A stretch of 62,533 nt of DNA, the filler included, from Dugesia japonica (lineage: Eukaryota): NCBI GenBank assembly GCA_001938525.1. It is 5 parts of 5 records of this genome, joined end to end, with 100 filler letters (N's around TTAATTAATTAA, not from the genome) between each part and the next. Parts side by side here need not be neighbours in the genome. Positions count along the whole stretch, not along the records: positions 13,164 to 24,317 come from MQRL01543392.1; 4 more parts are not named here. One strand, written 5' to 3'. The position numbers and the translations under genes were made by a program. The notes below the pieces were generated by a model that saw only the letters and a program-made list of their open reading frames with translations, was not told where the DNA came from and made no database searches. Shown here piece after piece: positions 3,870 through 50,503 of the stretch; within the stretch, counting starts at the first letter, position 1, and each line of letters begins with the position of its first letter.

Positions 3870-5450
3870 TATTTAATTAATGGTATTTAAGGAATAAGAC
3901 ATTAATTATTTTCTTATAAGTTAATTAGTTAAAATAAATTATTTATAATTATTTTTATACATTGTTTCAGTAACCGTCTTGCTTTCCTTCCATACCATTA
4001 CATTACCCCCCCGACATGTACAGTCCCACGGAGCGAATCCATCAAGATCTTTAGCAACCAATTCGAGTCCATTCATTATTGAACTTATCGATTAGCTTGC
4101 GTAGTTTTAACTAGACTAAACTCGATTACAGTATGTGCATATTCAGGAGCAGTATTTATCTCCGTTCACAATCTGACATAAATTGAACACCACTACAATT
4201 GTTTTAAAAAACAATCAGTCGTCATAGTCAAAAATTGACTAGACTCAGATCCTCAAAATGGTCAGGAATTCCAAGTCTACTGTTACTTATTCAATATATA
4301 ACATTTTTTATATTATTTATATTAAATATCATAGACCATATTACTATGGAACCTTTAAATATTATATACCATATTAATATGGAACTTTTAAACATAATTG
4401 ACCATATAATAATCGAACCTTTTATTTACCTAAGTTTGAATTAAATTAACATTTAAAAATATAATTTAAATTAATCATATAAACAATGAAGATATTAAAG
4501 AAATAAACTCACCATTTTTAATTCTTCATTTTTAATTTTAAATACAATTAAGTAAATATGAAATTGAAAAATCAATGTATTTATTGAATGTTTAATTTCA
4601 TATTATCATAATTGAAATTATTATAATTATGCTAATATGAAATGAATAAAACCCCATACATTTACACATGGTCTAAAGGTCAAGTCACCAAATTTCTATA
4701 CCAGGTCAAAGTCTATAGCACTAAATTTATATACCAGTTGGCAGCCAGGGGATGGTACTGTGCACTACTACTTCTCTCTACATTTCTCAGTAGTTGGAAT
4801 CCAAACTGTTTCTGTAATTCTATTCCTCAATTAGATATGGATGTATTTGTTTCACCACAATAAATTTAACTGTTTAGTCTTTATTCTCGATGTCTACTTC
4901 TATCTTTATAGTACCTAAGATTTATTGGCACAACTGAAATTATCTTCACCTTTAAATAAATCGACTGTTTTCAATCTTTCAAAAATTTTCATGCTCATAA
5001 GATATATTCTTGTTTCACTGTCTAATAAGTAATCAATTGTTACACCTTGTATTTCAAACGTTATACTTGGTCTACCTTGTATCTTGTCATAACTTATTCC
5101 TTGACGACCTATCTCTTCTATCATCAGAATTTTATTGTAGTCTTCTCCAATTATAACATTGACCTCTAATTATTTTTTTCTTTACGAAATTGTAAGCCTT
5201 TCCTTTTATATTATTGTACTCATTTACTCGTTTATCCTCTGTACTTTCATTTATATTATTATACATACAATCTTTAATATAATTAGGAATATTGCGATTT
5301 TTAGGATACTTAATTCAAATTAATTCGGTTGGAGCTTTGCCATTTGGGTTAGATTCCTTTTCTGGACACCTTAATACAAAGGAGACCTGGGGGATTATTA
5401 ATTTACCAATTATATCAAATCATTTCACAGTGTACATATATTATCCTGGA
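3870..5450 (-). mobile_element. Degenerate Ty3/gypsy-type LTR retrotransposon fragment (protease remnant, PPT, start of 3' LTR)
   Basis: ORF 4915-5124 RPSITFEIQGVTIDYLLDSET is a decayed retropepsin LLDSG motif; minus-strand G7 tract (4006-4012) lies just before TGTAAT at 4002; extents approximate. Confidence 0.6.
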
Positions 5451-5454
5451 GTAG

Positions 5455-6672
5455 TATATACTACCACCAGACAGAAAATTGGAATAATTCAGGATGAAAG
5501 AATAAGAGCTGAACGATTATCTTCAAATGAAGAAATGAGACTGACGTCCCTCAATTTGATAAAAAATATATTTCTAAATAATGGTTATTCAAAAAGATTC
5601 GTATCTAAATATTTATCATCAAATACAAAATCTAATAAATCAAATAAAAGACGAATACAGTAATTAAGTTACCTTTTATTAATGAGAAATGTAGCCAAAT
5701 CATGCAAAATATAATTAAGAAATATATACTCAAACACAATCCAAGAATTATTTTCAAAAGGCAAGCACCTTTGGGTATCTAATTGCGGAAACCAAGACAA
5801 AATTTTTGTGGTCCCACATGCATTTGTAATTGTAGAAATATATGCAATAAAAATATCACTTACAAAATAGCATGCACCTTATGTAAAGATACATATATAG
5901 GAGAATCATGCAGCATTATCCGTACAAGAATTAAAGGACATCTCAAACAGAAAGTGAAGTCCTCAAACACTTTAAAAAAAACATAATGTTTTACAAGAAA
6001 ATAATCATATAACATGGAAAACATTAGGAATAGGCTACATGTCTACACTTCACAGAAAAAAACATGAATAAATATTAATTAAAGAGAAGAAACCTAAGAT
6101 AAACGTGATTTTCAATAATTACAATAATTAGAATTTTTTCTTTCAATACTTTTTGAATTAAATAAAAAAAATTTTAAAAAAAATTAAAATTATCAAAGAT
6201 TTATTATCAATAATTACAATAAATAAATAATTGATGTATTAATAATAAATAAATAATAAATGATAATTAATAATTTCGAAATAAATAATTTTAAAATAAA
6301 TTGTTTTAAATAATTTTAAATAATTTTAAAATAAATAAATTTAAATAATAATTTTAAAATAAAAGATTTTCACGAATTAAAATAAAAGTTTTCAATAAAT
6401 AAAAAAAAATTTCAAAGATTTTCAATAATTAAAATAATTCACAAAAACAAATTGAAAGATTTAGTGAAAACTTAGAGTTTTAATATTATAATATTTTAAT
6501 ATTAAGAAAAAATGTTTTTTTGATATTTAATTTTAATAGAAAAACAGTAGCAGATATCTTGTCTTTTTGAATTATCAGAAAAACATCATTCCTGAAGAAG
6601 TAAAGTGTTGAAAATTTGAACTTCTTTACAAATAAATTTTATTTTGATCGCAGCTTTTTCTTTATTTTAATG
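5455..6672 (+). mobile_element. Penelope-like element, 5'-truncated (RT thumb, GIY-YIG, 3' pLTR), family A
   Basis: FLNNGYS thumb motif; YKIACTLCKDTYIGES GIY-YIG; stops present; closely similar to 10350-11010. Confidence 0.9.
6589..6620 (+). ncRNA. Degenerate minimal hammerhead motif in the PLE 3' end
   Basis: ttc-CTGAAGA-..-GAAA-ATTT-gaa; stem II eroded. Confidence 0.5.
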
Positions 6673-8830: not shown

Positions 8831-9634
8831 TCTAAATGCAATTTGTTAATAAAACAGGAAATCGTAAATTCATTTGGATATATTGGATAAATGATTTGGA
8901 TAATCTAATGGATGATATTACATGTATTGTAATATTTTCAAATTAATAAATTGTTAAATGATATATTCGTCTGAAGAATAATTTTGAAATAGTACAAATT
9001 ATATATTTGAAAAATACTTGTGTTTTTTCTAATTAATAATTATTTTCTTATAAAAATGAAACAAATTATGATATATATTTTTATTTTTAATAATTAATTA
9101 AATAATGTCACATTATAAAAAAGTTATTTATTTTATAACAAGTTTCAATTTTTGGAAGGATTTCTTAAAGTACATTGGAGAGACAAAACGTCATCTGCGC
9201 ACATCTGTTGGTAAGCATGTGCAATTGGGTAGAAAAATTTTAGATTATGCAGGTTTCTGGAAAAATAGAATTTTTTGAACAGTTGGTTTCGTAATTATTT
9301 TGAATGAAAGTCTGGTGAGTCTTTTATAATTGGATTGTATAACCCGATTTTTTAAACTCAGATTGCCACAAATTCACTTTTATATTTATTTTACTCTTAT
9401 TTGATTGATTACGCCCGGTTTAATTGTTCAATATTTAAACACTTTCTTTTTTTACAAGAGTAAATAGACATAGATGTGTGCGAAACATGTCTTGCAAATA
9501 AGAATTTTAAAAAATTATGTTTATCCTTTTATTTAGTTTGAAGCAATTTGTACAATAAGTTCTTAAATATAATAAAGAAAATGTCATGAACTAGTTCTAT
9601 TATCGATGTACTGTGTTCATAAATATCATAAAGA

Positions 9635-11240
9635 AAGAAAGATCTATTGTAAACGGTTCTGACACTCCTTTTACTGCATTATGCAAAACTTTGCCAGATA
9701 TATTAAAACCACTATTAAGTTTCATTCCGGCACATGTGAAGAATAATTATGAGTTTGTAGAACGAATTAAAAACTATGAATAGAATAGTGATGATGAATT
9801 TGGTCCATTAGATGTAACGAATCTATATGGATCAATTCCAATTGAAGGACTTGAAAATTTCATTGATATCATAAGGGACTTCTTTGAAAGATACAAAGAA
9901 CATACAGATATTCCAGAAATCATCAAAAATGATTTCAAATGTATTTTTTTCAATTTTAATTTGTTTCTCTTCTCTGATAGCATTTTCATCGGTGAAAAAC
10001 ATTTTAAACAAAAAGATGGTCTTGTAATGGGTAATAATTTATCTCCTATTCAAGCAATAATTTTCATAAACTTTATTGAAAATCAAATAATTCTTAAATC
10101 AAACAAGAAAATTCACCTATGGTTTAGATACATAGATGATATTTTCTTTGTAACTAATTTTCCTTTAGAGAACATTTTAGAATTAGCCAATAGTATACAT
10201 GATAACATTAAATTCACTTTAGAAAAATCAATTGACTTTCAGATTCTTTTTCTGAACACTTTAATCCAAAAGAAACCTGATGATATCTTAACTANCCAAT
10301 TATATATGAAACCATTTCACAGTAGACATATATTACCTTGGAGTAGTAATACTACCATCAGTCAAAAAAATGGTATAATTTAGGGTGAAAGAATTCGAGC
10401 TGAGAGACTATCTTCCAATGAGGAAATGAAATTGATTTCTCTCAAGTTGATAAAGAATAAATTCTTAAATAATGGCTACCCAAATAAAAGTATATCGAAA
10501 TATTTATCTTTAAATAAAAAACAAAATAAAATCAAACCAAAAACAAACGTAGTTATTAAATTACCTTTTATTAATGAGACATGTAGCCAAATCATGCAAA
10601 ATATAATAAAAAATTCTAAACTCAAACACAATCCAAGAATTATTTTCAAAACACAAGCACCTTTGAGCATCCAATTAGAGAAACCAAGACAAACTTTTGT
10701 GGCCACAAATGCTTTTGAGATGTAAAAATATGTGCAATAAGAAAAATGTCACTTATAAAATAACATGCACCATTTGTCAAGAAACATATATACATGAAAC
10801 ATGCAGAACCATCCGAACAAGAATTAAGTAACATTTAAAACAAAAAGAAAATGAAGTCTTCAAACACTTTCAACACAAGCATAAAATTTTACTAGAACAT
10901 TAGTTGGAAAACACTAGGAACAAGCTACATTTCTACACTGCATAGAAAAAAACATGAAGAATTAATAATTAAAGAAAACAATCCTGAAATAAATGTAATT
11001 TATAATAATTAAATAGTGAAATTTAAATTAAAATTAATCAATTAAAATTTAGTNNNNNNNNNNNNNNNNNNNNNNNNNNNNNNNNNNNNNNNNNNNNNNN
11101 NNNNNNNNNNNNNNNNNNNNNNNNNNNNNNNNNNNNNNNNNNNNNNNNNNAATTGTTATCCAATATCAATAATTAAAACCTAAATTTTGATCAAAGCTTT
11201 TATATTAAATGAATTCTAATAAAAATAAGTTTATAATTCT
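9635..11240 (+). mobile_element. Penelope-like element (RT plus GIY-YIG), family A, degenerate
   Basis: RSIVNGSDTP, LDVTNLYGSIP, FKQKDGLVMGNNLSP, WFRYIDDIF, FLNNGYP, C-x2-C GIY-YIG; stops and frameshifts. Confidence 0.92.
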
Positions 11241-13163: not shown

Positions 13164-13977
13164 TAAGAAAACTGAATTTAAAACCTGAGTGAAAAAGATA
13201 TCCAAGAGTAAAATATTCTTTTGATGAAAAGTCTCAACAATATATTAAAAATAATTATGGTGGTTATGTTTTTAATATTAAAACAAATTCTTTTGAAATT
13301 CTAGAAATTGCAAAAAAAGAAAGTTTAACAGATCAAAGAAATAATTTAGCATTATTAAAATTAAAAAGTAACACAAATACAACTTTAAATTAATCTGTGA
13401 GGTAATTTTAAAAATTTGCAAATATTTTAAAATTTAATGCAATGTTATTAATTTAAATTTTTTAATGTAAATANNNNNNNNNNNNNNNNNNNNNNNNNNN
13501 NNNNNNNNNNNNNNNNNNNNNNNNNNNNNNNNNNNNNNNNNNNNNNNNNNNNNNNNNNNNNNNNNNNNNNNNNNNNNNNNNNNNNNNNNNNNNNNNNNNN
13601 NNNNNNNNNNNNNNNNNNNNNNNNNNNNNNNNNNNNNNNNNNNNNNNNNNNNNNNNNNNNNNNNNNNNNNTAATTGTAATTGAAATAAAGTATTGAATTA
13701 AAAGTCTTGTTTTAGTTGATTTAAATGAAGAAGAAAACAAATAATACTAAAAAAATAAATAAACAAAAAATCAAGAAAAATAAATAATGAAAGTGGTGGT
13801 GGATATTAAGATAGTAAAACAGATAATGATTTAAACAAAACATTAAACATCAATCCCAAAAAGTAAGATAAAACATAGACTAACATAAAGTAAATATAAA
13901 CACACATAAACCAACATTTAAATAAGTAATAACATTAAGGTAGTTTTTTTGTCCAACCTAAATTTGTTCTTTATAAA

Positions 13978-15740
13978 ATGAGTATCTCAAATGAGATGCC
14001 CTTCGCAAGTGTAACGAGTTCGTCAAATATGAGCTTCGCAAATGAAATGAATTTTCAAAGACCTATGAGTGTTTCAACGTTAATTTTTAAATATTCTGTC
14101 GGTAACAAAACTTTTAAAATTAACGCGGGGTTGTCGTCACATATTCATTTTCAAACATGTAAAAGATCGAGAAACATGTTTTATGAATGTAATTTATGTT
14201 TCAAAAGATTAGCAAGTGAAAAGGTTTGCGATTATATAAAAACTCCACAAATTGTGGAAGGGTTGGAAGTAGTATGAGTAGAGTTGGTTTAACATGTAAT
14301 TATTGCAATTTTACATTTACAAGACAAAATTATGCAAAATCACAATTCAACAGTGATTTGCACAAAGAAAATGTATTAAAAGTAAAAGAAGAAGAAGCTA
14401 AAAATTTTTTTGATGAATTACCTGGTGAAGAGACAATTGATTTTGAAAAGAATGAAACAAGAAAATTATTTAAACATTTAAAGGATAAAGAATATTATAA
14501 AATCGAATATTTTAAAGTAAAATTGAATTAACCAGGAATGTTCAACGATTAAATTGTAAATTAATAACCTGGTTTAAAAACGAAATTACTAAAATTGTCG
14601 ATATATATTTTGAAAATTTGAAAAAGATCATGTTGAGATTGAGTGTAAATTGTAATTACACTAAAGAAGATGAAGAAAGAATATTTAATTCATATTTAAG
14701 TAATGAAATAATTTGTAAAAATTATTGTAAATGATTTATTAAATCAACTTCAAATGTATATGGGAGATGAAGATCAAAATGAATCTGGGTAGAAAATAGA
14801 TCATATTGTTGATTTTAAAATCGAACTTTCTAAATATCAATCATTGATTGGCTCATCATATAAAAAATTACCTTTTGTTAAACAAGGTATAATTAATATT
14901 AAAAATAAAGATGATAATTATTGTTTTATATATTTTATTTTTGTTCATAAACATGTATTACAAGATCCAACTAGAGCAAATGTTTATAAACAATTTATTT
15001 CTGAATTAAAAATAAATGGAATGAATTTTCCTGCAAGTATTGATAATGTAAAAATATTTTTAAAAATTAAATGATTTTAAAGTAAATGTATTTGAAGTGA
15101 CATAGAAGGCTAAAATCTATCCTGTTTATATTTCATATTATGAAAGTAATCCTAAATCAGAGGAGAATAAATGTAATTTATAATTTTACAAAGGTCATTA
15201 TATTTTATGTAGAAATTTTCGTGTCTTTGGAAATACTAATAAAAATAAAAAATGAATTATGTTTATGTTTTATGAATTCATATAGAAGTAAAACTTTATT
15301 TATTAATCATCAAAAAGAATGTGTTTTACAAGATTCATGAAATGTTTACTTTGAAACTAATAAATATTTTTCATTTACAAATAATCATTTCTCAAAAGAA
15401 TTACCTTTTTTAATTAATGGTGATTTTGAAATTTGGATAAGTACAATTACAAATAAACAAAAACCATTATCTCTTGGAATTTACATCAAAAGTAAATATC
15501 AACATTTAATTCAAAATTAATATAAAGTATTTTATGGAGAAAACATTCATCAACAATTCTATGAATTTTTAGAAGAAATTAATAACAAATTAATTGAATA
15601 TTATAGAGGAACAAACCGTCCACAATATATAAATCAAAAATGTAGATATTGTAATAAAAATATAACTGAAAATTTAGTTATTGATCATGATCACTTTAAT
15701 GTTGAATTTAGAGGTTGTGCTCATCAAATTTGTATCTGTA
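13978..15740 (+). pseudogene. Zn-finger region plus N-terminal part of protein-primed DNA polymerase B (exo I, endonuclease VII-like), truncated
   Basis: CNLC and CNYC..H fingers; GSSYKKLP..IINIKNKDDNYCF; GMNFP; PFLINGDFE; CRYC..VIDHDHF..EFRGCAHQIC; many stops; breaks at ~15740. Confidence 0.85.
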
Positions 15741-16283
15741 ATATTTTCTTCAACTTCTTTAGGTTTGTCATTCATATTTTTATGGAACCTACTGGGATTA
15801 TTTTTTAAGTCGTTCTTTGTTTGTGTTTGCTCATTTTTCATTTCATTCATTTTAATAATCAAATCACTCTAGGTTTTAATCTATTGATTATTATTTCCTA
15901 AAGGTTTCTGAATATAAATATTTTGATTGTTCTTCGTTAGCGTAAGTGGATTTACTTGTTTTTCTAATTTAGTAATTTCTCTCTTCATTTGTGTTAGCTC
16001 GTTTTTAATTTCACTTGATATCATTTTTAACTTCATTCTTAAATTCATTCTTCAAATTATTTAAAATTTTTAAATTAATAGCATCTAGTTCATTTTTAGG
16101 TTCATTAATAATTTTCAAGCAAGTAATCGAATCTCCACTTTCATTAACAAACCTTTTATCATTGTTTATAGATTCAAATTTTTATTTAGCAGAAACATGA
16201 TTTAATATTTCTGTATTATTTTGACTATTTAAAGTAGCTTCAAATTTATTAATTGTCTATAAAGGTAATATACAATTTATTTT

Positions 16284-16570
16284 TTATAAGTCATTTTGAG
16301 TTAAAGTTGTAAATAATTCATTAATAATTTCATCAAAGGTTTTATAATTTATCACCTTTGGTTCAAGCTTTGCAAAAGAGTATAAAAAATATAAACATAA
16401 TATTCCACAAATACTAGTTCCAAAAGGTTGAACTTGAATTTTATTATATACATTTACCTTTGATTTTATTTCTTTCAAAAGTTTTAATTCATATGAATCA
16501 AAATAAAAAACAACGATTAAAAGCAACTCAATAATTTCCATTTTGATTTGTGTTTTGATAATTATTTAAT
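16284..16570 (-). pseudogene. Adenain-like maturation cysteine protease remnant
   Basis: VFYFDSY...IQVQPFGTSICGILCLYFL matches the YFDS/Q/CG protease motifs; His region decayed. Confidence 0.8.
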
Positions 16571-16666
16571 TTTAGAAATAAATATCTTTTGCTTCTTTAT
16601 CATTACTTTTATTTCCTAAAATTAAGTTCATTATTTCCTCAGAATATGGTATTAGTTCATGGTTAT

Positions 16667-17005
16667 TTAAAAAATATTTTTTCCATCTTCTTCAAATAAA
16701 TATATTACTGTTTGTGATCCTATTTCAAATATAGGTTTATTTGTATTAGATAGATTATCAATATTTAAATTAATTTTAGGAAAGAATGGAATTCTATTTT
16801 CAAAAAGATTAATAGGTTTTGTATGGGACCCTTTGGGACTTAATTTTTTAATTGCTTTAATCGTAGGTTGTTGATGGAAAGTTAAAGTATCTTGTAAAGT
16901 TTTTGATTCAATTACATTACCACTAAATAAATTATTATAATCATCTCGAGATTTAATTAATTCTTTCAAAAGTTTTATTCTTGCCAACATTTTCTCATTA
17001 TCCAT
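16667..17005 (-). pseudogene. Uncharacterised Polinton ORF
   Basis: 112-aa ORF with an AAAATG start between the core-like gene and the protease. Confidence 0.45.
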
Positions 17006-17037
17006 TTTTATAAGGTTTTAAATACAAACCATCACCG

Positions 17038-17546
17038 CTAGTTTTTATTTGTACTTCTTTTTTTAAAGACTTTAGTAATCATCTTCAATTCTGGGTTTGA
17101 TAAACTATTTTTTAAATATTTATGTATTGTGCTTCCTTGATAAGGTTTTAAATATAATCCAGATTCAGAATTAGTTTTATTATCACGAAGTTCTACTTTT
17201 TTCTTGTTCAGCAAATTTATTTTCAAGTTCTCTTTTTTATAATTCAACTAATTCAGTTTCTTTTTGTTTTTTGATTACATCTCTAGACTTGCGCACAGTT
17301 GATGCCACTGCACTAGCTGTTCTACAACTGCAGCCGCAGCTTCAGTCGCAGTTTTTATTCTAGATATTATCCCAGAAATTAATTCTAATAAAGGAAATAA
17401 TTCACTTTCATGTTTTTTACTTAATTTTTTTTTTATTTCTTCTTTAACTTTATTACCAATCCAATAGTTTTTAACAATTATTTTTCAGATTTATTTTTAT
17501 TTGAATTTATCAAATCAATTAATTCTTGTTCTGATATTGAAGACAT
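17038..17546 (-). pseudogene. Polinton core/membrane-active-like protein (FPLL..AAAA..GLYLKPY type)
   Basis: FPLLELISGI..EAAAA hydrophobic segment, then SGLYLKPYQG; frameshifted. Confidence 0.6.
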
Positions 17547-17765
17547 TTTATTCAATTGTAATTTGAAAAATAATAAAAATATTCTTATTTATTTTTAGTA
17601 TCAAAAACTCAAATCTTCTTTCTTCTCTTTTCATCTCTTTCCTCCTCTTTCTATCTCTGTTCTCCTATTTTCACCTCTTTACCTCTTTTAAATCCTTTTT
17701 CTCCTCTTTGAATAAGTCTTCTATTAATATATCAGCTTCTCTATCTAAATAATAATAACTATACT

Positions 17766-18450
17766 TTATTTTTTCCAATATAAATTTACATTATAATCAT
17801 ATTCCATTTTACTAGAAAATGTTTTACTAAACAAATCATAATAAACATGTTCTTTATCAGTTTTATTTAATTTGATAAAGATGAAACAATTAGAATTATT
17901 TCTAATAGAGATTTTATCTAAATGGAAATAAGTTTGTGAAATATAAATAACATTACAATTAAAATGTCTTCCTCTAGTGAAATAACTCTTTTGAATTTCT
18001 TGATCTTTCACATTTACAACATCATCAAAAATTATTAAATTCTTTTTTTGTTAAGATAATTTATCACAAGGAATAATTTTATTTGGTTTATTACTTAAAA
18101 TTGTAGTAATTTATTTGTTAAATACTTTTTTTCTATAAACCATTCAATACCTTGCAAAGGAGTAATTAAAGAATTTAGAACTATATTTTGATGTTCAAAA
18201 ATAAAAATAATATCCTGTTTTGTTAATTCATTTTNNNNNNNNNNNNNNNNNNNNTGTAATTCAAATTGATTTATAGTTATAGAATAAATTATCAAAGTGT
18301 CATAATCCAAAAACTCTGGAGTTAATAACATTTTCATTTACAAAATATTTTTACCTGAGACAGAAGAACCAATTATTAATAATCTAAAATTAGAAGGAAA
18401 GATTTTATTATTAAATATGTTTAATTTTTAATCCAAATTAACGAAGTCAT
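17766..18450 (-). pseudogene. A32/FtsK-like packaging ATPase
   Basis: FRLLIIGSSVSGK (Walker A), LIIFDDV (Walker B), FTRGRHFNCNVIYISQTYF. Confidence 0.9.
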
Positions 18451-19129
18451 TTTTATTTAATAAACGTTAATGTTTATTTTGATAATCAGAAGTTATTTTT
18501 TATCAAAGAATTCTTTTATTTCCCTTTGATATATATAACCATTCATACGTTTATCATTTATTTTATTTACTATTAAATTTAATATACCTATACTATATAG
18601 ATCCATACTATTAAAAGTGAAACTTTTTAAATAGTTGATTAATATTGCAACTTCTTCATCTATTTCTTCAAATGTCATGGTTTCATATTTTCTATCATCA
18701 GGCTTATTTATAATTATCCACTTCCAAAATTATTTTGGTGGATTTCTGAAATTTACAGCTGCAAGTGATTTCTTCAAATATTTATTTTCTTCTGATTCTT
18801 TTTTAAATTCTTCTCATTTTTGTTTAAATTCTTGTTTTAATTCTTCTTTAAGAAGTTCTTTTAATTCTTCTTCTAATTCTTGTTTAATTTCTTCTTCTAG
18901 ATTACTTTTCGATTTCTCTTTTAGAATATCTTTAAAAATAAAATCAAAAGAATAAGACTCTTTGAGATCACTCATTTTAATTTATTAATTTAAAATTTAT
19001 AAAACAGTTTTCTAAAGTTCATTACTATAAAATCTACGGATGGTTATATAGATCAAAGTAAAATAAAAGAATTCTTTGATGAAAAAATAACTTCTGATTA
19101 TGAAAATAAAACATTAAAAAAAATATTTT

Positions 19130-19885
19130 CATTTTCTAAATTAGTAATTCGATAAGTAAAAGACTTTGTTTTATATACTTTTGTTACTACAAATATTGCA
19201 TTTGTTCATTTAGCTGTAAATCCTTTTTCAAATTTATATTTGTATTCAAATATTCTAACTCTATCTCCAATTTTAAATTTCTGTTTTTCTTTTATAAAAT
19301 CATTTTTATGATTATGATCTTCGATTATTTCTTTTATAGTTTCAGGATTTTCACTAGCTTCTTTTGGAGTTGTGTTTTTAAAATAGTGAATTGTATTATT
19401 ATATTCATCAACAATTTTATCTTACAAGTTTTTATCCCATTTTTGATTTCCAACTAATATAAAATATTTGCACCTTTTATCTTTTAGAGTTTTAATAAAT
19501 CTTTCAGCAAAAACTTATTTACCCTCATTTTCAGTGTGAAACAGATTAATATCATTTTCTTTAAAAAATTTATAAAAATATTTTTATCTAAATGCTGACT
19601 CTTTATCAAACCAAATATGATTTGGAATTCTATTATTTTCTTCAAATATATTTTCATAAGCTTCTCGCAAAGATTCTTGATTTTTATTTTTCATTGGAAC
19701 ACAAAAACCAAATCTAGTATATAAATCTATACAAACTAAAATATATATATATTTTTTTCTTAATCAGTTGATTTTATAACTATATCAATAATATCAAAAC
19801 CCTAAGTATTATCTTTTCTTTTATTATTACTTTTAAATATTTTTTAGGTTTTCTATAATTTTTATTTATTTCATTTGCAAGTAAG
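19130..19885 (-). pseudogene. Polinton retroviral-like integrase
   Basis: LANEINK N-terminus, YILVCIDLYTRF, PNHIWFDKESAF, FAERFIKTLK, VDEYNNTIH; frameshifts. Confidence 0.9.
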
Positions 19886-19959
19886 GAGCAAACGGAGTGA
19901 GCTCCTTCATTTTCTTTATTTTTATAATTATTTTCTTTTTTTTTAATAATAGGTATGGA

Positions 19960-20260
19960 ACTCACTTCGTTCATTCCGGCACCTAAAATAATTTTACCTT
20001 TCATTGCTAATTTTACTAAACCTCTTTGGATCTAATCTTAAATTTAATCTTGTTCTTGGGCCATTATAATTATGTTTAAACAAATGTCTTTCACCTGGAT
20101 ATTTTTCCTAAGTAAATGGTTTTAAAATTGCTAAAGTTAATTTAGAAGATTGTAAATCATCTTATATTTGAACATTAAATAAACCAATTCGTAAATGTCT
20201 AGCTTTATTTTTCCAAAGTTAAATTTTGTTACAATTTTCAAAAATGCATTTATTATCCAT
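19960..20260 (-). pseudogene. Parvovirus-type phospholipase A2 (PLA2X) remnant with catalytic core deleted
   Basis: PGERHLFKHNYNGPRTRLNLRL (Ca-loop Y-x-G-P-x-T type) joined directly to the LAMKGKIILGAG C-terminus; no HD motif. Confidence 0.7.
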
Positions 20261-20312
20261 TTTATATATTTTATAATTAGAGAATTTTAGGACTACTTGC
20301 ATAGTCCAAATA

Positions 20313-21633
20313 TTAATCTAATTTTTCACCTAATTTATTTTCAATCATAACAATTTTGTCATTTAATAATTTCATTTCAAAATGTTTTTCTNCTAAAATA
20401 CGCCAACATAAACGACCTTTAAAATCAGAATCTTTAGTTATATGTAAAGTTACATCTACATTATTAATATTTAATTTATCATCTTGAGAACTAACATCAA
20501 AACCATAGATTGGATACAAATCACCAAACTCTTGTAAAGATAATTGTGGTTCACAAAAGAAATCTTTACAACAATTTAAATAATTTAAATAAAGGAAAAT
20601 CATTTCATTATTATTAATATTAAATTTACATTTATTTATAGGATTATTTGTATTATTTAATTGAATTTGAATACTTTTTAAAGAGGGTTAAGTAGTTTCA
20701 GTTTTTTCTTCAGTTCCTACTTTTTGTTTAACGGTTTTTGATATTCTTTGAATAAATAAAATTATTATCTTTTTGATCTTAAATTTCTAAATCTTTTATT
20801 CCAATAAATATATATCTTGGTTTATAAGTTAAATTACTTAGTTTAAGTGAATAATAATTTTCTGAATCAAAAGTTGTTTTTGAAATCATTCTATTTAAAA
20901 TTGAAACTTGAATAGATTTATTTGTGTTAATTCTTTCTAAAAGATTTATTTCCATTTTTGGAAGTAATTTACATTCTGGTATATGTAGTTCTAAAGTTGT
21001 TAGTTTTAAAGTTGCAGTTGTTTGTTCACCCCCATAAAATACTAATTTATCATTTATGTGTCGATTACAAGTAAATTCAATCATTGTATTATATAATAAT
21101 CTATTATAATATTGCATAAATCTAAATAAATTTTCAAAGGAAAATAACCTTTAATTTTCTTTTTTTGTGTTATAAAGTTTTCTTCTTTAAAAACCAAGAT
21201 TTGCATCAAGACATTCTACATCAACATCACCATTATTTGTGTCTGGTAACCAACCTGATAATTCTCCATAGATATTTTTATAAGTTGAATTAATTGTTAT
21301 TTAATTTATTATTGTTGATGAAATTCCTGGGTCATTAGTTATTTCTACATGTGAAGATCCTAAAGTTAATGTCATTGTTTTAAATAAACTTGGAAACCAA
21401 TTATTTTCCAAAGTTATTTTATCTCCATCTGAAACAACAANNNNNNNNNNNNNNNNNNNNNNNNNNNNNNNNNNNNNNNNNNNNNNNNNNNNNNNNNNNN
21501 NNNNNNNNNNNNNNNNNNCAGAAGGCATTAAATTAGTTATTGTTCCAGCTGAAGGTGAAATTCTCAAAACATCATTTTTCAAAATTAAATGTTGAAAATT
21601 AATATTATAATCAAGATCAAGTTTTGTATACAT
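20313..21633 (-). pseudogene. Polinton major capsid protein (double jelly-roll), lineage 1
   Basis: ITLENNWFPSLF..EITNDPGISSTI, LELHIP, KPRYIFIG, YPIYGFDVS; frameshifts and a gap. Confidence 0.8.
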
Positions 21634-22042
21634 TTTCTTTAGAAATAAAATAAGAAAAATATATTTGCTTTTGCATTTGCATTTCTATTTTTTAAAAACA
21701 AAATAAAAAACTATTTTTTATAATATTGATAATTATTCATACATGTAAATTTTTTAATATTAAATTTATGAATTTCTTTAATTTCCTCTTTTGTAGAAAC
21801 AACCCTCAGAGGTTTAAATTTATTTATGAGACTTTGAATTTATTTTTACTAATCTTAATTTTTTTATTACAATAACCGCAATGCCATTCATAATTAATTT
21901 TGAATCTACATTCACCAAAATCTAAATGTTTATATAAAATAATTTTACCATCAAATTTTTCTTTACAATCATTACAAGTATATTCTTTCATTTTATTGTT
22001 TTTAAATTTTATTATATTTTAAAAAACCAATACACCAACCCA

Positions 22043-22189
22043 AGTAGCGTATAAATAACGGCTTCCCGTTTGTATTGCAATTTACTTTCATAATACAAAA
22101 TTTTATATTGTTATTTTATCTAAGTATTAAACAAGTAGGTGAAGAAAAAGGGCAGAACCTTGCAAGGAAGCCGTCATTTATACGCTACT
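22043..22189. mobile_element. 147-bp element with 24-bp terminal inverted repeats (AGTAGCGTATAAAT..)
   Basis: 22043-22066 vs 22166-22189, one mismatch; no TSD seen. Confidence 0.7.
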
Positions 22190-22199
22190 CTGATAATTA

Positions 22200-22700
22200 A
22201 AAATTGGTTGATTCTCTTAATTGGGCACGTAAAAGATCAGTACAAACAACATTAAGGGTGGAATTGATTTCAATTTGTTGAGATTTTAGAAGTATCATCT
22301 ACTATTAACTGTTGCCTTCTGGCACAACGATTGATTCAAATATAATCTGCTTGAAATTAACCGAACTGTACAAGGCTATTCATACAAAGTATCCAGATTT
22401 AGCAGATTGCAAGAGTGTTGTCTTTCAACACAACAATAGGTAGCTTCATATATCATTAGTCAACTGGGAAAAATGATGAGCCATAAGTATGATATTTTGC
22501 TCAACGGACTTGGCTCTCAGCAACTAACATTTATTTATGTTAATGCAGAATTCTTTTAATGAAAAACCTTTAAGGATGAGAAGTTGTCTAAAAGCATCTA
22601 GATATGTCTTATTGAAAATAAACTAAAATAGTTCTACTAACGTAGAATAATGAAAGTCGTAGAAAGATGGAAAGATGTGTTTTAACAAAACTTATTGAAA
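22200..22700 (+). mobile_element. Mariner transposase C-terminal remnant
   Basis: Decayed IIYY.LL..GTTI, VVFQHNN, STDLALSN.HLF (SPDLAPSDYHLF), RW.C. Confidence 0.75.
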
Positions 22701-36056: not shown

Positions 36057-37430
36057 AAATATTGAATTACATAATTTTACAAATTAGTCAAATCAAAATT
36101 TAATTGTTTTTTTTTAATTAGTTACGTTTGAGAAAGAGAAAATATTTTATTGAATGTTTGACATCAATTAATTAAATTTAGAATGAATTATTTGTTTTTA
36201 TTATCCTATATTTCAGAGATTCTCAAGCAATTGGTTGGCAAATAAATCCGAGAAACAAAGAGTAACGGATTGTTGCAATTGTTCGATACTGACATCATGA
36301 AATTCCTAATGAAACTTGCAAAAAAATTGCTAGAAAATGAAAGAAAGGCTAAAAATGGTCATTAATAAATAGTCAAATATTTCATTGCTTTTATTTGTCT
36401 TTAATAAATTTATTAAAAATATCTTGAATAAAATAATATTTCTATTTGTTAGACTAAAGATTAATTATTTCTCGACCAAAATAACTGTATAAATACTTTG
36501 TCACACCGCCATATATTAGTATTTTTTTAAAGTAATAACATTTTTACATAATATCTTTACCTAATCAAGTATGGAGTCCATTACCAGTTTTATCATTACT
36601 GAAAAACAGGTAGTACCGAGTAATACTTGAATCACTGAAGACTAATTACCGACAAGTTTGGTAATGAAACATTACAACAAATTCTTTTGCTCAATTGATT
36701 ATATTAGTAAGGATTGATTGACACTTTCAAACAATTTAAATACTCCCCATAGCAGCTATGAATAGTCAAGATCAGGAATGTGAAAAACAAATAAAAATGA
36801 TAAAAATTCTATGTGGTTCTATTTTCATCATAGAAAAAACAACCAACATTCAGGTATATGTAATCTTCTAAGGTCTGGTAAAGTTATGGAAGGTAGTGGT
36901 GGCATTAACGCACACCAAAAAAAGATAACATAATACAGTGTTGTCAAAGAAAGGTGCACTGGTAGAAACCGATAGAGACAGCCAGAAAAGTACCAATGGT
37001 AGAAAACCTACACATACTGTTAGAAGTGAAATATCTCAATACTTTTATACCAAAGGCGATAATTCTTTGCCACCAGTTCTATCTCCACTTACATATTTTC
37101 TTTATTTTAACATAAATTGGAAGTCTCTTGACATAAGGCAAGGATGAATAGCTCATGGATTTTTAGTATCAGATCAATTATACTTAAATCCAAAAATAGG
37201 GTGTTGAATAACATTAATAGTTAGTGCAAAAATTAAGTTTTATTTTGAAAAACGAGTAGACATCAGTTAACGATAAGAGATCGATACTAAAAATGTTTAT
37301 TCCGTCCAAACTACATGGAAGTTAGGAGTAAGCCGAATAATTATAACCATGTCGCTGAGAAGTATGTCAACCTTATCAATTCAAAAAGACATATATTGTA
37401 TTTATCCCTTCAGTCTGATATAACATAACT

Positions 37431-38703
37431 ATTTGTTTGGGATCTATACATCACGAACTGCTTGTTTTGGGTCTATTTGTCCATGAACTATTCATTTGGT
37501 GCCTATTTGTCCATGAACTATTTGTTTGGTGTCTATTTGTCCATGAACTATTTGTTTGGTGCCTATTTGTCATGAACTATTTGTTTGGTGTCTATTTGTC
37601 CATGAACTATTTGTTTGGTGTCTATTTGTCCATGAACTATTTGTTTGGTGTCTATTTGTCCATGAACTATTTGTTTGGTGCCTATTTGTCCATGAACTAT
37701 TTGTTTGGTGCCTATTTGTCCATGGACTATTTGTTTGATGCCTATTTGTCCATGAATTATTTGTTTGGTGCATATTTGTCCATGAACTATTTGTTTGGTG
37801 NNNNNNNNNNNNNNNNNNNNNNNNNNNNNNNNNNNNNNNNNNNNNNNNNNNNNNNNNNNNNNNNNNNNNNNNNNNNNNNNNNNNNNNNNNNNNNNNNNNN
37901 NNNNNNNNNNNNNNNNNNNNNNNNNNNNNNNNNNNNNNNNNNNNNNNNNNNNNNNNNNNNNNNNNNNNNNNNNNNNNNNNNNNNNNNNNNNNNNNNNNNN
38001 NNNNNNNNNNNNNNNNNNNNNNNNNNNNNNNNNNNNNNNNNNNNNNNNNNNNNNNNNNNNNNNNNNNNNNNNNNNNNNNNNNNNNNNNNNNNNNNNNNNN
38101 NNNNNNNNNNNNNNNNNNNNNNNNNNNNNNNNNNNNNNNNNNNNNNNNNNNNNNNNNNNNNNNNNNNNNNNNNNNNNNNNNNNNNNNNNNNNNNNNNNNN
38201 NNNNNNNNNNNNNNNNNNNNNNNNNNNNNNNNNNNNNNNNNNNNNNNNNNNNNNNNNNNNNNNNNNNNNNNNNNNNTATTTGTACATGAACTATTTGTTT
38301 GGTGCATATTTGTTTGGTGCATATTTGTTTGGTGCTTATTTGTCCATGAATTATTTGTTTGGTGCATATTTGTCCATGAATTATTTGTTTGGTGCATATT
38401 TGTCCATGAACTATTTGTTCGGTGCCTATTTGTACATGAACTATTTGTTTGGTGCCTATTTGTACATGAACTATTTGTTTGGTGCCTATTTGTACATGAA
38501 CTATTTGTTTGGTGCATATTTGTACATGAACTATTTGTTTGGTGCCTATTTGTCCATGAACTATTTGTTTGGTGCCTATTTGTACATGAACTATTTGTTT
38601 GGTGCATATTTGTTTGGTGCATATTTGTTTGGTGCTTATTTGTCCATGAACTATTTGTTTGGTGCCTATTTGTCCATGAACTATTTGTTTGGTGCATATT
38701 TGT
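37431..38703. repeat. 30-bp minisatellite (TATTTGTCCATGAAC+TATTTGTTTGGTGCC) with internal gap
   Basis: Near-perfect tandem array built from two 15-bp half-units. Confidence 0.97.
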
Positions 38704-39209
38704 AATAAAATTTAAGATTTTATTGCATAATTTTGTAGAATTTTTAGAATTCTCAAATAAATTATTCCTAGCAAGAGAGACTGTTTTGGCAATTTGCATT
38801 TAAAAATTCGTCTACGCATTTATTTAGGAATACATCATATATTAAAAGAATTGTATTTTGTTTAGTTTGGTATTTAATTTTCAAGATTATTCTGCATCGT
38901 TTCCAGATTACAAAAATAACCAATTTTAATAGATATGTATAATTTCAGAATTCATCTAATGTCTATTTTAAATCAGGTAATTTTTTTTTTGATTATTTAA
39001 CAATTTACACAAATAAATATTTCAGATCTTACCGTTTATAAAATCTTGATTTATCAATTCTAATTAACTTGGTGATAATATCAATAAATAAAATGAAATA
39101 ATTTTAAATTAAAAATGATTAATTGCAATTTTAATTAAGTTGGTGATAATATCAATAAATAAAATGAATTATAAATTAAAAATTATTAATTTCAAAATGT
39201 AATATTAAC

Positions 39210-39758
39210 TTGATTTCTCAATCGTTTGTTATCTTCTTCCGATTTATGATTTCTTTGAAGAAGTGATGATATTTCTTGATTTAATGAAGATATTTCACTA
39301 CGAAGCAATTTGTTTTCAATAATCGGATTGCTATCCATATTTATATTAATAATGTCCTCTGATTTAATATAATCATCATTAACTGTTTTATATCCACTTG
39401 AGCATTTATCAGAATATGAATCCCCATTATTAGGTGAAAATATATCAGAACGACTACGCGGTAAATCAGAATTATTTCGAAACTGGAATAGATTTTCATC
39501 TTTTCTATCGACTACTAAAGGTTTATTAGTTGTTTTTTTCAATGGTAAAGATCGAATAGAATCAGAAGTATTATAAACATCTGTAGAATACTGGCTTAAT
39601 TTATCATACTCTTTGATAACAATTGGATCGGTTTTTCTATTATATTGTGGTCGCTTATCCAGACTATCTTGACTTTTGTTGAGTGCTTGAGCTGCCGAAT
39701 TATCAAGATTATTAAGGAAATTTTCAGCTTTTCCAGCTAAATCACTTATCCAAGACAT
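39210..39758 (-). CDS. GOLGA5: Golgin-84 (GOLGA5) first coding exon
   Basis: MSWISDLAGKAENFLNNLD is the golgin-84 N-terminal motif; ENKLLRSEISSLNQEISSLLQR starts the coiled coil; GT donor after RNQ. Confidence 0.85.
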
Positions 39759-40977: not shown

Positions 40978-41271
40978 ACAATAATTGTAATTATAAAATT
41001 GTTTATGTTGTTTAATAATAAAACATTTATGGATGGTATGCTTAAGTTGGTGACTCACATGTTTTTTATTAATATCAAATTATAAACGTCAATGATGCTT
41101 AATTTGGTTTCAAAGTAGGGTATAATAATCTTAACTTTAAATGCAAAAAATGGAAACAAAATTTTTAAAAAACTAAATTTATAAAAAGTGAATTTTATTA
41201 TATAAAAACTCTAAAAATAACGGTTATCATTTTAAATAAATAGTTCACAACCATTTTTTTAAAATATTCAT

Positions 41272-41312
41272 TTGCGACCAATTTCGACGGAATAACCGTC
41301 ATCATCAGGCAA
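41272..41312 (-). ncRNA. Minimal type-I hammerhead ribozyme, intact core
   Basis: UUGC-CUGAUGA-U-GACGG/UUAUU/CCGUC-GAAA-UUG-GUC-GCAA: stems I and II pair perfectly, GUC cleavage triplet. Confidence 0.88.
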
Positions 41313-42430
41313 TTAAAGAATATTAAAAAAACTTTTTACAAAGTTGAAATGATTATATAATTTCAATTGTACAATCTCAATAAAAAATTCAATAAAATAA
41401 TTTTAAGATCGATGTTGAGCGATATTTTTCTGTTAAACCTTTAGTTTATAAACGTTATGTCGATGACATTTTGAAAATCTCTCTCAAGTACATCCATTTT
41501 TGGAGTATATGAATAACTTGCATCCAAATATAGGCTTTATAGTTGAAGAAGAGATCAATTCAACTATTCCTTTTCTTGATTTGCTTTTTGAAAGAAAGAA
41601 TACTTCAGTTGAAACAGAGATATATAGAAAGAAAACTGATAACGGTTTGTTTACAAATCCTGCCAGTTTTTGTGACATAAAGTATAAAAGTAATATGATT
41701 AAAGAACTAATTCATCGTTATTGGTCTCTCTCTTCTACTTTTATCAAAGTAGACAAGAGTCTAAAAATTATTTGACTAACTTCATAATAATGGGTATTCT
41801 AAATTGTTTACGACAAATTAGTTTATGAAACTTTGAATAAACTTAATAGTGACTTGTCACGTGTTGATGTATCTGAGAATGTAGAAACATATCCTAAAAT
41901 TGTTTTATCTTTATCTTATTTTGAAGGCTTAAAAAAATTCAAACTTTCGATTGAAAATTCCTTTAAGACGATTTTAAATATAAAGGTGGTTTCTCGATCT
42001 CATAAGGTTATAAATATGTTCAATAATAAATCTGTAACCCCTTTAGACTTGTGCTCTGATTTGGTCTATCAATTTTAATGTAATGGGTGTAAAGCCACAT
42101 ACATTAAAGAGACTTCTCATCATCTTTGCACCAGAGTTCAAGAGCATAGTCGAAATAGTGGTAATAGTAATATTGTTCGGCATCGAAGAAAATGTAGAAA
42201 ATCAATAGGGTGTTCAGATTTTAAAATTCTGTGCAGTGGATTTAATAATTATTAAGAGAGAGTGATGTGTGAAGCTTTGTAGATAAGGGCATTAAATTCT
42301 AAAATTAATGTTCAGTTGACGGATTCAACATCTTTCTTAAAATCATTTTATTGAATTTTATATTGAGATTACACATTTGAAATTATATAATCATTTAAAC
42401 TTTGAAAAATGTTTTTGTAATATTCTTTAA

Positions 42431-42471
42431 TTGCCTGACGATGATGGTTATTCAGTCGAAATTGGTTGCAA
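42431..42471 (+). ncRNA. Minimal hammerhead ribozyme, second copy with a weakened stem II
   Basis: UUGC-CUGACGA-U-GAUGG/UUAUU/CAGUC-GAAA-UUG-GUU-GCAA. Confidence 0.75.
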
Positions 42472-43017
42472 ATAAATATTTTAAAAAATGGTTGTCAATT
42501 ATTTATTTATTATAAAACATTAAAAATTTAATGTCATGAATGTATCTGATGAGATTCTATGAAGTTTTTGATTCTAGGTTTGATTTTTGCTAATAAAAGT
42601 GTTAAATTTTGACTATCAGATATTTGAAATCTATTTTTTTTGTTATTTAAAAGGTCCATAACCGTCGTTAAACTTATTTCAACTAAATACGATGAAGGAA
42701 ATGAGATTAAAAGATTTTTTACTATGCTCCATAATTCGGGACCGGTCTTTGAAATATTTTCTTGTTACCAGAAATGTTGATATCCATTTTGAATTTTAAT
42801 TTCAACTCAAAATTGGTGAGGAGCTCTATTAGTTCTTCTTGTATTTTAAAAGATTTTTCAGTTTTTACATGGGTCTAAAACCCAATCAGGTATTTTAATT
42901 TTAAAATATCCACAAATTGACAATTTAAATCAGAATATAAAAGATCAAGATGATTACATTAAGGGCTTCCCAGTTTTAGCAATCTATAACAATATGTTAT
43001 ATGATGCACGTAATCAA

Positions 43018-43890
43018 TCATAAATTGAAATGATCTAAATTCGAGCTTGATGTTTTAAAGTGTCCATTATATCGATATCTGCGTTGAAATGTTACCAACA
43101 AAAAGTTTGGTAATCGACGATCTCCAAAGATTTGTTCCTTATAAAACGTTGTACTATCTTTACTGATTGCATAAATTACAATTTCCTTGGTTCTTATTGG
43201 ATAAACAGCATTTTGCTTAGCAAGTCCTACTTGATGACCTCTTAGTACAGATGATTCAACTTGAACTCTTCTAACCATCAATTTTGCATCAAGCAATATA
43301 AATTTTGGTTCTTCAGTTACAGCTTCTAAATCCATTCTATTGGCTGCTCTCCTCAATCGAATGTGTACATTAACACCAGGAATAAGATACTTTGGTTGAT
43401 CCATGAAATCAAGTTGCAAAGAACCACATNNNNNNNNNNNNNNNNNNNNNNNNNNNNNNNNNNNNNNNNNNNNNNNNNNNNNNNNNNNNNNNNNNNNNNN
43501 NNNNNNNNNNNNNNNNNNNNNNNNNNNNNNNNNNNNNNNNNNNNNNNNNNNNNNNNNNNNNNNNNNNNNNNNNNNNNNNNNNNNNNNNNNNNNNNNNNNN
43601 NAAAGGACAACATCTTTAAACAGTGTATGAAACACATAGTTGCTCGGTACTACGTCAGATTTTTCACTCAAGTCTTTTTCAAATTTATCAACAACTCTTA
43701 CTTGTACATACAATAATGCATCATTCAAATCTAGATAATCAGTTTGTGATCCATTTATAAAAAACTCGACATCATTTCTACTTTCAGAAATTGAATTCAT
43801 TGGAAACACATCTTCAAATGATCCGTATTCGATATTACCTTGAGGAGTTGGACGATCAAAAATACACAATTCAGTTTTTCCGCAAATCAT
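43018..43890 (-). pseudogene. Polinton/adintovirus major capsid protein, lineage 2, 3'-truncated
   Basis: CGKTELCIFDRP..YLDLNDALLYV..HTLFKDV..DFMDQPKYLIPGV..SNLDHF. Confidence 0.9.
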
Positions 43891-44264
43891 TTTTCAAAAA
43901 TAGTTCCATAGCCATGAATTTGTTTGTTTATACTTGAATGCTTAGGCTTTATTCCAGCACTTTTGAGTTTAGATTCATTTGTAGTGTTGTCTTTTGACAT
44001 AATTTTCGTTACTTCTGGAGAAGCCATAAAATCCTTGAATTCTGTCATAGCATTTGTTTTGAGAGAAGGTAAAATATTTGCTTTATTATTTATTACACCA
44101 TGTGCTGTTTTCATTACGATTGCTCCAATACGTCTAAGAATAGGCAAAGCAAATCTACCAATTGTTTGCAACCATCCAAATCCAAATTTTTTTCCTACAA
44201 AGTATGGTAATTCTCTACCAGCTTGACTAGTACTATAAAGTTTAATAATATCGGGAGTAGACAT
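43887..44264 (-). CDS. Polinton core-like protein (Q-x-G..P-Y-F-x-G..G-x-G amphipathic type)
   Basis: SQAGRELPYFVG..GFGWLQTIGRFALPILRRIG; ATGA stop/start overlap with the capsid gene. Confidence 0.75.
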   Translation of the reverse strand: MSTPDIIKLYSTSQAGRELPYFVGKKFGFGWLQTIGRFALPILRRIGAIVMKTAHGVINNKANILPSLKTNAMTEFKDFMASPEVTKIMSKDNTTNESKLKSAGIKPKHSSINKQIHGYGTIFEK

Positions 44265-48009: not shown

Positions 48010-49589
48010 GTATTTTGTCGATTCCGATATTTGTTCAAAGCTTGCCTTACTAGTATTTTGTTGTCTTTTTGTTGCGTTCTGTATGCACGTATTTTTGCTA
48101 GCACTTTCCGATTAAACCTGAATTTCATTATAATTTCTAAGCTTAAATTTTAATTAAACATGTTTGTTAAAAATCATTAGCTTAAATGATTGATTTTACG
48201 CTTAGTTAATTAAAACAAAATGAAAATTTCAATGAACAACTTTTCATTAAATATGTGCTCATATAGAATAATTACACATACTTAGAATGATGCCAAATAA
48301 TTATTGAAATTCGATAATTATCATGATTTAATCGATTAATAATATTTTATTGATTTCTTATATTTCATGAATTGTGAAAAAAAAAACTTTTTATGCATGT
48401 GGAAAATGTCACAATTTTGCTAACAAGTTGAACTGTAATAAAACTTTGGATGTATTAATTGGACAGCTAATTTTTCAGTCAAAATCATATTTCATTGATT
48501 TCAAATATAAAACACAATAGAGAATTTCGTGTTTCTACAGATTTGAGAGAAATTAGTTTTTTAAAATTATTATGCGATATTATTTTAAAAAGTGAAATAA
48601 AAAAGTTTTGTTTTTTTCTAGATTTTTAAAATTTTATTTTCATCTGGAATTTTATTTCAATTTATTCAGCCATAAATTCCTAAATAATACCCCAATTAGA
48701 ATTAATGTGATTTAAATTAATTTTGATTGGTTTTACAGTTTTCAAGTAAATCGAAAAAAATTACTATTAATTTTTGCAAGAAATAAATAAATGTTTTTAC
48801 CTAATACTTTCTTTTATTAAATGGAAATAGAAGTTTTATTTGTTTCAAATAGTAATGAGATTAATTACTAGAATTTCAGTTATCAAAGGTTAAAGCTTAT
48901 TGTCTTTTGATTTTCATAAAATAAAATATCCTTCGAGAAACAATAGAGTACTAGTTATTGGAAATTCTTTTAAAAAAAAGGAACATTCAAAACTTAATTT
49001 TACAAAAATTTAATTAGAAATATCTCACAGTTTAACAAACACATGAAAATTCATTTTAATAAATAAAGTAGGTTTTAATTTTAATGAAATATTTAAACAT
49101 TTAATTGGTTTATATTAAATAATAACAATTTTTCTTTGTTGATTTTCAAATATAAATTGAAAAAACAAATTTAAATTCAATTTAATCCATAATATAAATA
49201 ACTAANNNNNNNNNNNNNNNNNNNNNNNNNNNNNNNNNAAACTTTTCTTTGTTTTTATTAATTATCAGAATTTTTTAATTCACTGTTTAAATTAAATAAT
49301 AAAGAAAATTAAATATTTTAATCTATATTATTAGCAATAGTTAATTCCAATAGTAATAATTTGATATTTAAAAAAAAAACAATTTTTAAAATAATTTTAA
49401 GGTAAATCTAATTCTGAAAAATGAAAAAAAGTATTATTACAGTTCATCGTTCAATGTGTTATGCGTTAAGATTTCCCATTCTACTTCTAAATATTTACAT
49501 AAATTCAAGAATACCATTGATAATATTGAATAATATGTTATTTCCTAAAAAGTTATAAACAGAATTAACTTTGCTTTTATCATTAACAG

Positions 49590-50358: not shown

Positions 50359-50503
50359 GTACGTTTAAATAATGGAATTACAAATTGTTTTATGCAAATA
50401 TTGGTGTTGGGGGAATCTTATTTAAATTTAAAATGCTAATATTCTTTTAAATACTTTTTAAATGTTTCATGTATTATTTATCAATTAAGTATTTTTATTT
50501 TAG

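Follow-up and report, generated by a model that had tools for sequence, protein, structure and literature searches.

We asked what a handful of very short hairpins is doing inside the genes of a Polinton, a virus-like element, in the genome of Dugesia japonica. The hairpins lie in a 62,533-nt stretch of assembly GCA_001938525.1 (the window; five parts joined by filler), whose DNA is AT-rich and of animal type. It contains an Ig-domain exon, remnants of retroelements and numerous repeats, and the Polinton occupies ~13.9–22.0 kb. A sequence-only reading of this DNA had described GC-rich islands that share the design A-NN-GNA-NN-GA with different stem letters, and had proposed that they are an undescribed micro-element spreading in Polinton genomes. 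The hairpins prove to share a longer core, which sister copies of the element also carry and which recurs in phage DNA. Rather than serving the Polinton, these cores were probably carried along as hitch-hikers to places where a few copies could tolerate them. More specifically, they may be sporadic, enzyme-less passengers gained by some copies while the Polinton still replicated, an explanation that we consider about evenly balanced between right and wrong.

A 13-nt core at three sites

All of the motif letters quoted in the earlier description are present in the sequence. Read together with their flanks, the sites yield a 13-nt design, C-GA-NN-GNA-N'N'-GA-G, in which tandem G·A pairs are capped by a GNA loop. 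Allowing for CpG decay, the Polinton holds three such cores (at 14006 and 19889 on the plus strand and at 19973 on the minus strand) against 0.022 expected and a maximum of one in 400 shuffles, and the other 52 kb of the window holds none. The first CpG of the design is decayed in all three. Since the 13-mer was read from the flanks of known sites, and so defined post hoc, tests outside these sites were needed. The shorter 10-mer first described, also defined after the sites had been seen, is enriched over 200 dinucleotide shuffles within 13680–22700 (9 against 1.97 ± 1.4) but not across the whole window (16 against 11.7 ± 3.1), and most of its matches are AT-rich. The features concerned are:

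19883–19907, plus strand: cassette A, a 7-bp outer stem around the core at 19889–19901 (GGA loop); fold z −3.0; sister copies have G at 19890
19950–19985, minus strand: cassette B, an interrupted 11-bp outer stem around the core at 19961–19973 (GAA loop); sister copies have G at 19973
19882–19974, minus strand: linker between the PLA2X domain and the integrase, 31 codons (93 nt), with both cassettes in frame, from homologue alignment
14006–14018, plus strand: core 1, a decayed C-GA-GT-GTA-AC-GA-G (the first CpG reads CA) with T-A loop closure and no long outer stem
14033–14039, minus strand: canonical GCGAAGC mini-hairpin, from the sequence
14001–14069, plus strand: imperfect tandem duplication (units of 33 and 36 nt) at the 5' end of the polymerase; the second unit has the AT-rich 14041–14050 motif
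15015–15024, plus strand: 10-mer match on a conserved polymerase motif, no cassette, from homologue alignment

The GNA loop is closed by C-G at 14033–14039, 19892–19898 and 19964–19970, and by T-A at 14008 and 14041. Only 14033–14039 has two G-C pairs in its stem; in the three cores there is at most one such pair. The description of the islands as GC-rich applies to most of them (42–52% GC against 22% for the Polinton) but fails for the 14041 motif. An Rfam scan of 13900–22100 gave three matches, all with E > 2, far under threshold and none on a cassette.

Could these be chance matches shaped by codon effects? This is true of the 15015 match, which we rejected as a cassette because it consists of ordinary polymerase codons in a conserved ELxxxG[IL]xFP motif (94 of 149 homologues parsed), and it is probably true of the other AT-rich 10-mer matches; the post hoc definition of the motif also speaks for it. 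However, three cores against 0.022 expected, letters correctly predicted in sister copies and an independent stem signal in viral contigs (both described below) make chance a very improbable account overall, and largely refute it for the two 19.9-kb cores.

At the 14.0-kb pair, the units of what had been called a 33-bp, 11-aa duplication are indeed offset by 33 nt, yet they agree at just 19 of 33 letters (at 16 of the first 20), and the second measures 36 nt; the 14041 motif looks like the decayed second unit. The pair folds no better than shuffles (z −0.4). In-frame ATGs occur at 13978, 13996, 14029, 14047 and 14065, and since the last is downstream of the motifs, these may sit in a leader rather than in an open reading frame (ORF). 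The duplication may thus lie in a leader or an unconserved N-terminus; in 13 polymerase homologues that have a zinc finger early in the protein, it is preceded by 4–98 unconserved residues.

The cassette-bearing linker and its sister copies

Every gene of this Polinton is broken and its longest stop-free frame is 127 codons, N gap included, so the claim that the hairpins lie inside Polinton ORFs can mean only inside former genes. Within that limit, the 19.9-kb pair was correctly placed, in opposite orientations, in one open frame (83 codons), which joins the end of PLA2X to the start of the integrase. Integrase relatives number 170 at E ≤ 0.001, the best of them 61% identical and likewise fused to PLA2X. 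The linker between the two domains ranges from 0 to 58 residues in 15 proteins parsed, the window's own included. The cassettes therefore sit in sequence that homologues lack or replace, which bears out the idea of a structure-conserved design tolerated in frame. Read in opposite orientations, A and B encode unrelated peptides, and their near-identical cores are 80 nt apart. An intact relative (L008) has a single GCGAAGC, located in the same linker. In cassette B, the conserved L-G-A-G codons of PLA2X form the 5' arm, and the 3' arm repeats them imperfectly in inverted orientation, an arrangement which suggests that the second arm arose by fold-back copying of gene sequence.

If the cores are intact in other copies of the element, their decayed CpG letters should be restored there, and G at 19890 and at 19973 was predicted before sister contigs were compared. 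Contigs of four sequencing runs with the same species label (X1, X2, X7 and X8) were compared over 19560–20330 only. G is read at 19890 in three of the four runs (9, 3 and 9 contigs; depth 80/129, 63/63 and 113/122, or 62–100%), and at 19973 also in three (25, 23 and 29 contigs; depth 679/689, 741/755 and 764/779, or ~98%).

Depth in these runs also bears on how common the cassettes are. Summed depth in X1 is 62,247 at 19976–20001 and 13,583 at 19794–19819 against 456 at 19950–19975 and 216 at 19872–19897, where summed contig depth is not the same as copy number and 19905–19952 was omitted as a repeat. Some contigs jump the linker, from 19875 to 19979 in X7, and from 19841 to 19980 and 19878 to 20000 in X8. 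The Polinton family is very abundant, and few of its copies appear to carry the 19.9-kb cassettes; a minority is what the depth suggests.

The same data speak to whether the cassettes are fragments of some host repeat that entered the Polinton after it had integrated. The window is full of host repeats, and the core counts cover the window rather than the whole genome. On the other side, the remaining 52 kb is free of cores, the 93-nt linker is in frame within an otherwise broken gene, and the cores are common to sister copies. We regard a host-repeat origin as decidedly improbable.

The core in related Polintons and in viral contigs

Is the core a habit of Polintons at large? Across 85 integrase-related loci (385 kb), GA-NN-GNA-NN-GA occurs 20 times against 14.6 ± 3.3, but four out of five control patterns show as large a rise, and neither GCGNAGC (59 against 68) nor CCGNAGG (62 against 83) is enriched; we therefore rejected a Polinton-wide enrichment of the motif relative to shuffles or controls. 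Relaxed cores in 93 Polinton-integrase loci (462 kb) number nine, none of them within 1 kb of an integrase match; their density is 0.19 per 10 kb, whereas the Polinton of the window has 3.6. These 93 loci are mostly distant relatives, and a clade-limited habit is conceivable. A micro-element spreading in Polintons as a system of its own is thus unsupported by these loci, and the system proposed is both smaller and less specific to Polintons than had been claimed.

Eight contigs filed under metagenome-assembled genomes in GTDB (L284–L291) encode Polinton-type integrases, probably as host contamination. One of them, filed as bacterial (L291), has three GA-NN-GNA-NN-GA motifs spaced 44–45 nt apart at 617–718, at a distance of 9 kb from the integrase; the second of the three sits within a 10-bp stem.

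Among integrases at least 85% identical, 41 raw indels of 3–20 residues were found, from which 20 events were picked by hand. For 12 of these 20, the peptide could be encoded by DNA with a GCGNAGC or CCGNAGG hairpin on one strand or the other. Shuffled peptides give 7.07 (p 0.012), background windows 2.35, and two control motif sets 5 and 1; this is a test by back-translation of hand-picked events, and 8 of the 20 were negative. Many short presence/absence indels in related integrases are also what one would expect of a mobile micro-element moved in trans by an enzyme (of a co-infecting large virus, for example) and spread among Polinton copies in the manner of repetitive extragenic palindromic (REP) or palindrome-associated transposable elements. 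The two near-identical cores in opposite orientation fit this, as does a bacterial contig (L290) in which two 110-nt REP-like repeats, at 8989 and 9099, each carry the exact core of cassette A in a 5-bp stem. Nevertheless, inspection of the three core sites found neither common ends nor a target duplication nor a uniform length, their outer stems are unrelated to each other, and no mobilising transposase was found among the 40 window ORFs scanned. The hallmarks of REPs and of miniature inverted-repeat transposable elements (MITEs), namely conserved ends, target duplication and a cognate transposase, were therefore not seen at these sites or among those ORFs, and movement in trans seems quite unlikely.

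Viral contigs provided a further test outside the known sites. A 15-nt form of the 19.9-kb core matched at least 121 IMG/VR stretches and a GA-to-AG control matched 55, raw counts that we do not take as proof. Among the matches listed, however, an outer stem of at least 4 bp accompanies 45 of 125, against 1 of 55 for the control, and once relatives are collapsed the figures are 18 of 77 among the matches listed and 0 of 38 (p 0.0015). In 48 other CGA-NN-GNA-NN-GAG words nearby, the inner stems are complementary in 37 (chance 1 in 16; relatives uncollapsed). Most of the core sites, 68 of 80, lie outside ORFs of at least 120 codons, and where the longest ORF was scanned (44 of the 80 loci) 17 had a Pfam match, mostly to tailed-phage genes and none to a Polinton gene. 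The outer stems vary among these uncultured phage contigs. Taken together, these tests indicate that the design is real, widespread and not specific to Polintons. Of two blastn searches with the cassette pair, covering phages and plasmids, one gave a single 19-nt match that is due to chance and the other gave none.

One phage family (L090, L096, L099, L117, L140, L143 and relatives) has the core and another GNA hairpin in the space separating divergent genes. Across its 23 loci the position is kept and the outer stem takes three forms (21, 1 and 1 loci); with L090 as query, no annotated phage matched. Such constancy raises the alternative that the hairpins are working single-strand signals of one Polinton sub-lineage, serving in priming, packaging or as a template-strand promoter. 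Mini-hairpins do occur at phage G4 origins, RSF1010 ssiA and N4 promoters, according to the sections of Kimoto and Hirao (2026, PMC13037366) used here. The 14.0-kb pair lies directly 5' of the polymerase gene. ColE1 (L292) has an exact core at 1331–1343, presumably within its primosome assembly region, although the record has no such annotation. A signal would, however, sit poorly with the low depth that this Polinton family shows across the cassettes, the lack of a core near the integrase in the 93 related loci, and the opposite orientations within a coding linker that may be 0 residues long. We consider it unlikely. A link to rolling-circle CS-6 sites was also rejected, as pT181 has no core and phiX174 has one AT-rich 11-mer.

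How might an enzyme-less passenger be gained? Polinton-type protein-primed replication displaces single strands. On such a strand the core would fold, and fold-back or template switching would then copy flanking gene sequence into the second arm; with the arm copied from the local flank, each site would get its own outer stem. Selection would retain only frame-preserving insertions in loose linkers or leaders, and host methylation would erode the cores after integration; the ratio of observed to expected CpG is 0.51 inside the Polinton and 0.85 in the window outside it. No role for the Polinton would be required. A bolder version, in which a universal 13-nt GA-zipper/GNA core self-seeds its outer stem by fold-back copying of whatever flanks it, needs no transposase to spread through animal Polintons, phages and giant viruses, and supplies a large share of the short in-frame insertions by which Polinton proteins diversify, strikes us as rather doubtful.

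Several observations weigh against the passenger explanation, in addition to the limits on the depth and peptide comparisons given above. Cassette B does not beat shuffles under standard energies (z −0.7), and it is the only cassette that shows a flank-copied arm. The 14.0-kb form of the core matched 22 IMG/VR stretches, none of them (0/22) with an outer stem of at least 4 bp. X8 covers 19973 without the predicted G and gives no coverage of 19890, and the window itself may derive from X1, X2 or X7. That the cassettes are insertions is inferred from protein and depth data rather than from a comparison of filled and empty sites at the DNA level. Finally, the mostly intergenic placement of phage cores and their conserved position in one family suggest a function there.

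Known elements and the remainder of the window

Several known systems resemble the cassettes. Mini-hairpin DNA of the GCGNAGC type (PMC13037366, PMC3201870) has the same GNA loop with sheared G·A closure, 14033–14039 being canonical and both 19.9-kb cores reading C-GNA-G; such hairpins are far more stable in DNA than in RNA and bind single-stranded DNA-binding protein poorly (PMC13037366). Unlike those described in sections 2.3 and 4 of that paper, the cores have at most one G-C inner pair, next to which come a GA/GA mismatch in tandem and an outer stem that differs from site to site. Yeast mitochondrial GC clusters (Wu and Hao, 2015, PMC4478555) are also short, GC-rich, sporadic, enzyme-less palindromes in AT-rich DNA whose mode of spread is unresolved. 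They differ, however, in forming constant-sequence families with a putative target duplication, mostly between genes, whereas the cassettes, in a virus-like host element, are no multi-copy constant-sequence family and have only the 13-nt design in common. Rickettsia palindromic elements (as summarised in PMC10969869) are likewise palindromic insertions tolerated in frame within genes, but they are ~150 bp long, encode a conserved peptide and occur in dozens of copies, against three copies of 25–36 nt in either orientation here. By analogy, then, the cores would work like GC clusters and Rickettsia palindromic elements, yet they belong to neither. The promoter early stem-loop (PeSL) cassettes of T4-type phages are comparable as small stem-loop cassettes in hyperplastic regions of viral genomes, and unlike in being intergenic promoter-terminator units with polyG/polyC stems; no GA/GNA core is seen in the parts of PMC2839356 used.

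Full-text literature listings, which take in neither subscription papers nor supplements, yielded no description of the motif in Polintons. 'GNA' is absent from the main texts of two Weinberg motif papers, where most motifs are in supplements that may bear on novelty. How enzyme-less short palindromes such as GC clusters and coding palindromes arise in AT-rich genomes is unsettled. A high-copy Polinton family with and without the cassette would allow filled and empty sites to be compared by the hundreds, making fold-back copying directly testable, and a hairpin design common in phage DNA now extends to an animal virus-like element. The single Polinton copy in the window is dead and shows no function.

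Its gene set is that of a Polinton (rve integrase, A32 ATPase, double-jelly-roll capsid and a weakly matched protease), each gene broken, with the 5' part of PolB on the plus strand and protease, ATPase, integrase, PLA2X remnant and capsid on the minus strand:

13978–15808, plus strand: protein-primed PolB gene, of which a broken 5' part is left, from protein matches
16284–16565, minus strand: adenovirus-type protease fragment, weak match (PF00770, E 0.009)
17766–18337, minus strand: A32-type packaging ATPase, broken (PF04665, E 1e-5)
19092–19881, minus strand: rve integrase with stops and at least two frameshifts, from domain and homologue matches
19975–20110, minus strand: PLA2X domain remnant, internally shortened, compared with proteins P0003, P0012 and P0015
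20137–21684, minus strand: double-jelly-roll capsid gene, broken (PF21738, E 8e-7)

PolB, rve integrase, ATPase, capsid, protease and PLA2X are together found in an alpha adintovirus/Polinton (Starrett et al., 2021, PMC8502044); the window copy differs in being broken, and the main text of that paper contains neither 'hairpin' nor 'palindrom'. Alternative genetic codes were rejected as a cause of the broken frames, as they restored no long ones. Searches with the capsid fragment found no longer homologues, and those with the ATPase fragment and P0131 matched no viral contigs. Among the 25 longest inverted repeats listed, no pair flanks the Polinton, whose left side enters N gaps. Just past its last gene, at 22043–22189, a 24-nt inverted repeat pair starting AGTAG (one mismatch) surrounds ~100 nt and may be the element's end or a small MITE.

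The polymerase assignment follows from 14793–15071, which matches 520 proteins, with only the 5' part of the gene present. PF03175 was found in 3 of 13 long matches scanned and an EndoVII domain, also seen at 15521, in 4 of 13. The gene ends past the EndoVII-like domain and abuts minus-strand genes at 15808–15880, its catalytic part apparently deleted. A single 4,866-residue protein (P0163) has 53 stretches that match the same short motif from the N-terminal part of the polymerase.

Elsewhere in the window, related reverse-transcriptase remnants lie at 5292–6121 and 9559–11011, their 3' ends 83–86% alike. At 37427–38704 a 30-nt unit is repeated in two arrays, 12.5 times in one and 14.3 times in the other, with open frames of ~400 codons on both strands that have no Pfam match. 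Intact-looking ORFs of 125–296 codons, likewise without a Pfam match, are found at 39192–39758, 43018–44264 and 49549–50439, and long inverted repeats (41255–41418 and 42325–42488) lie near them.

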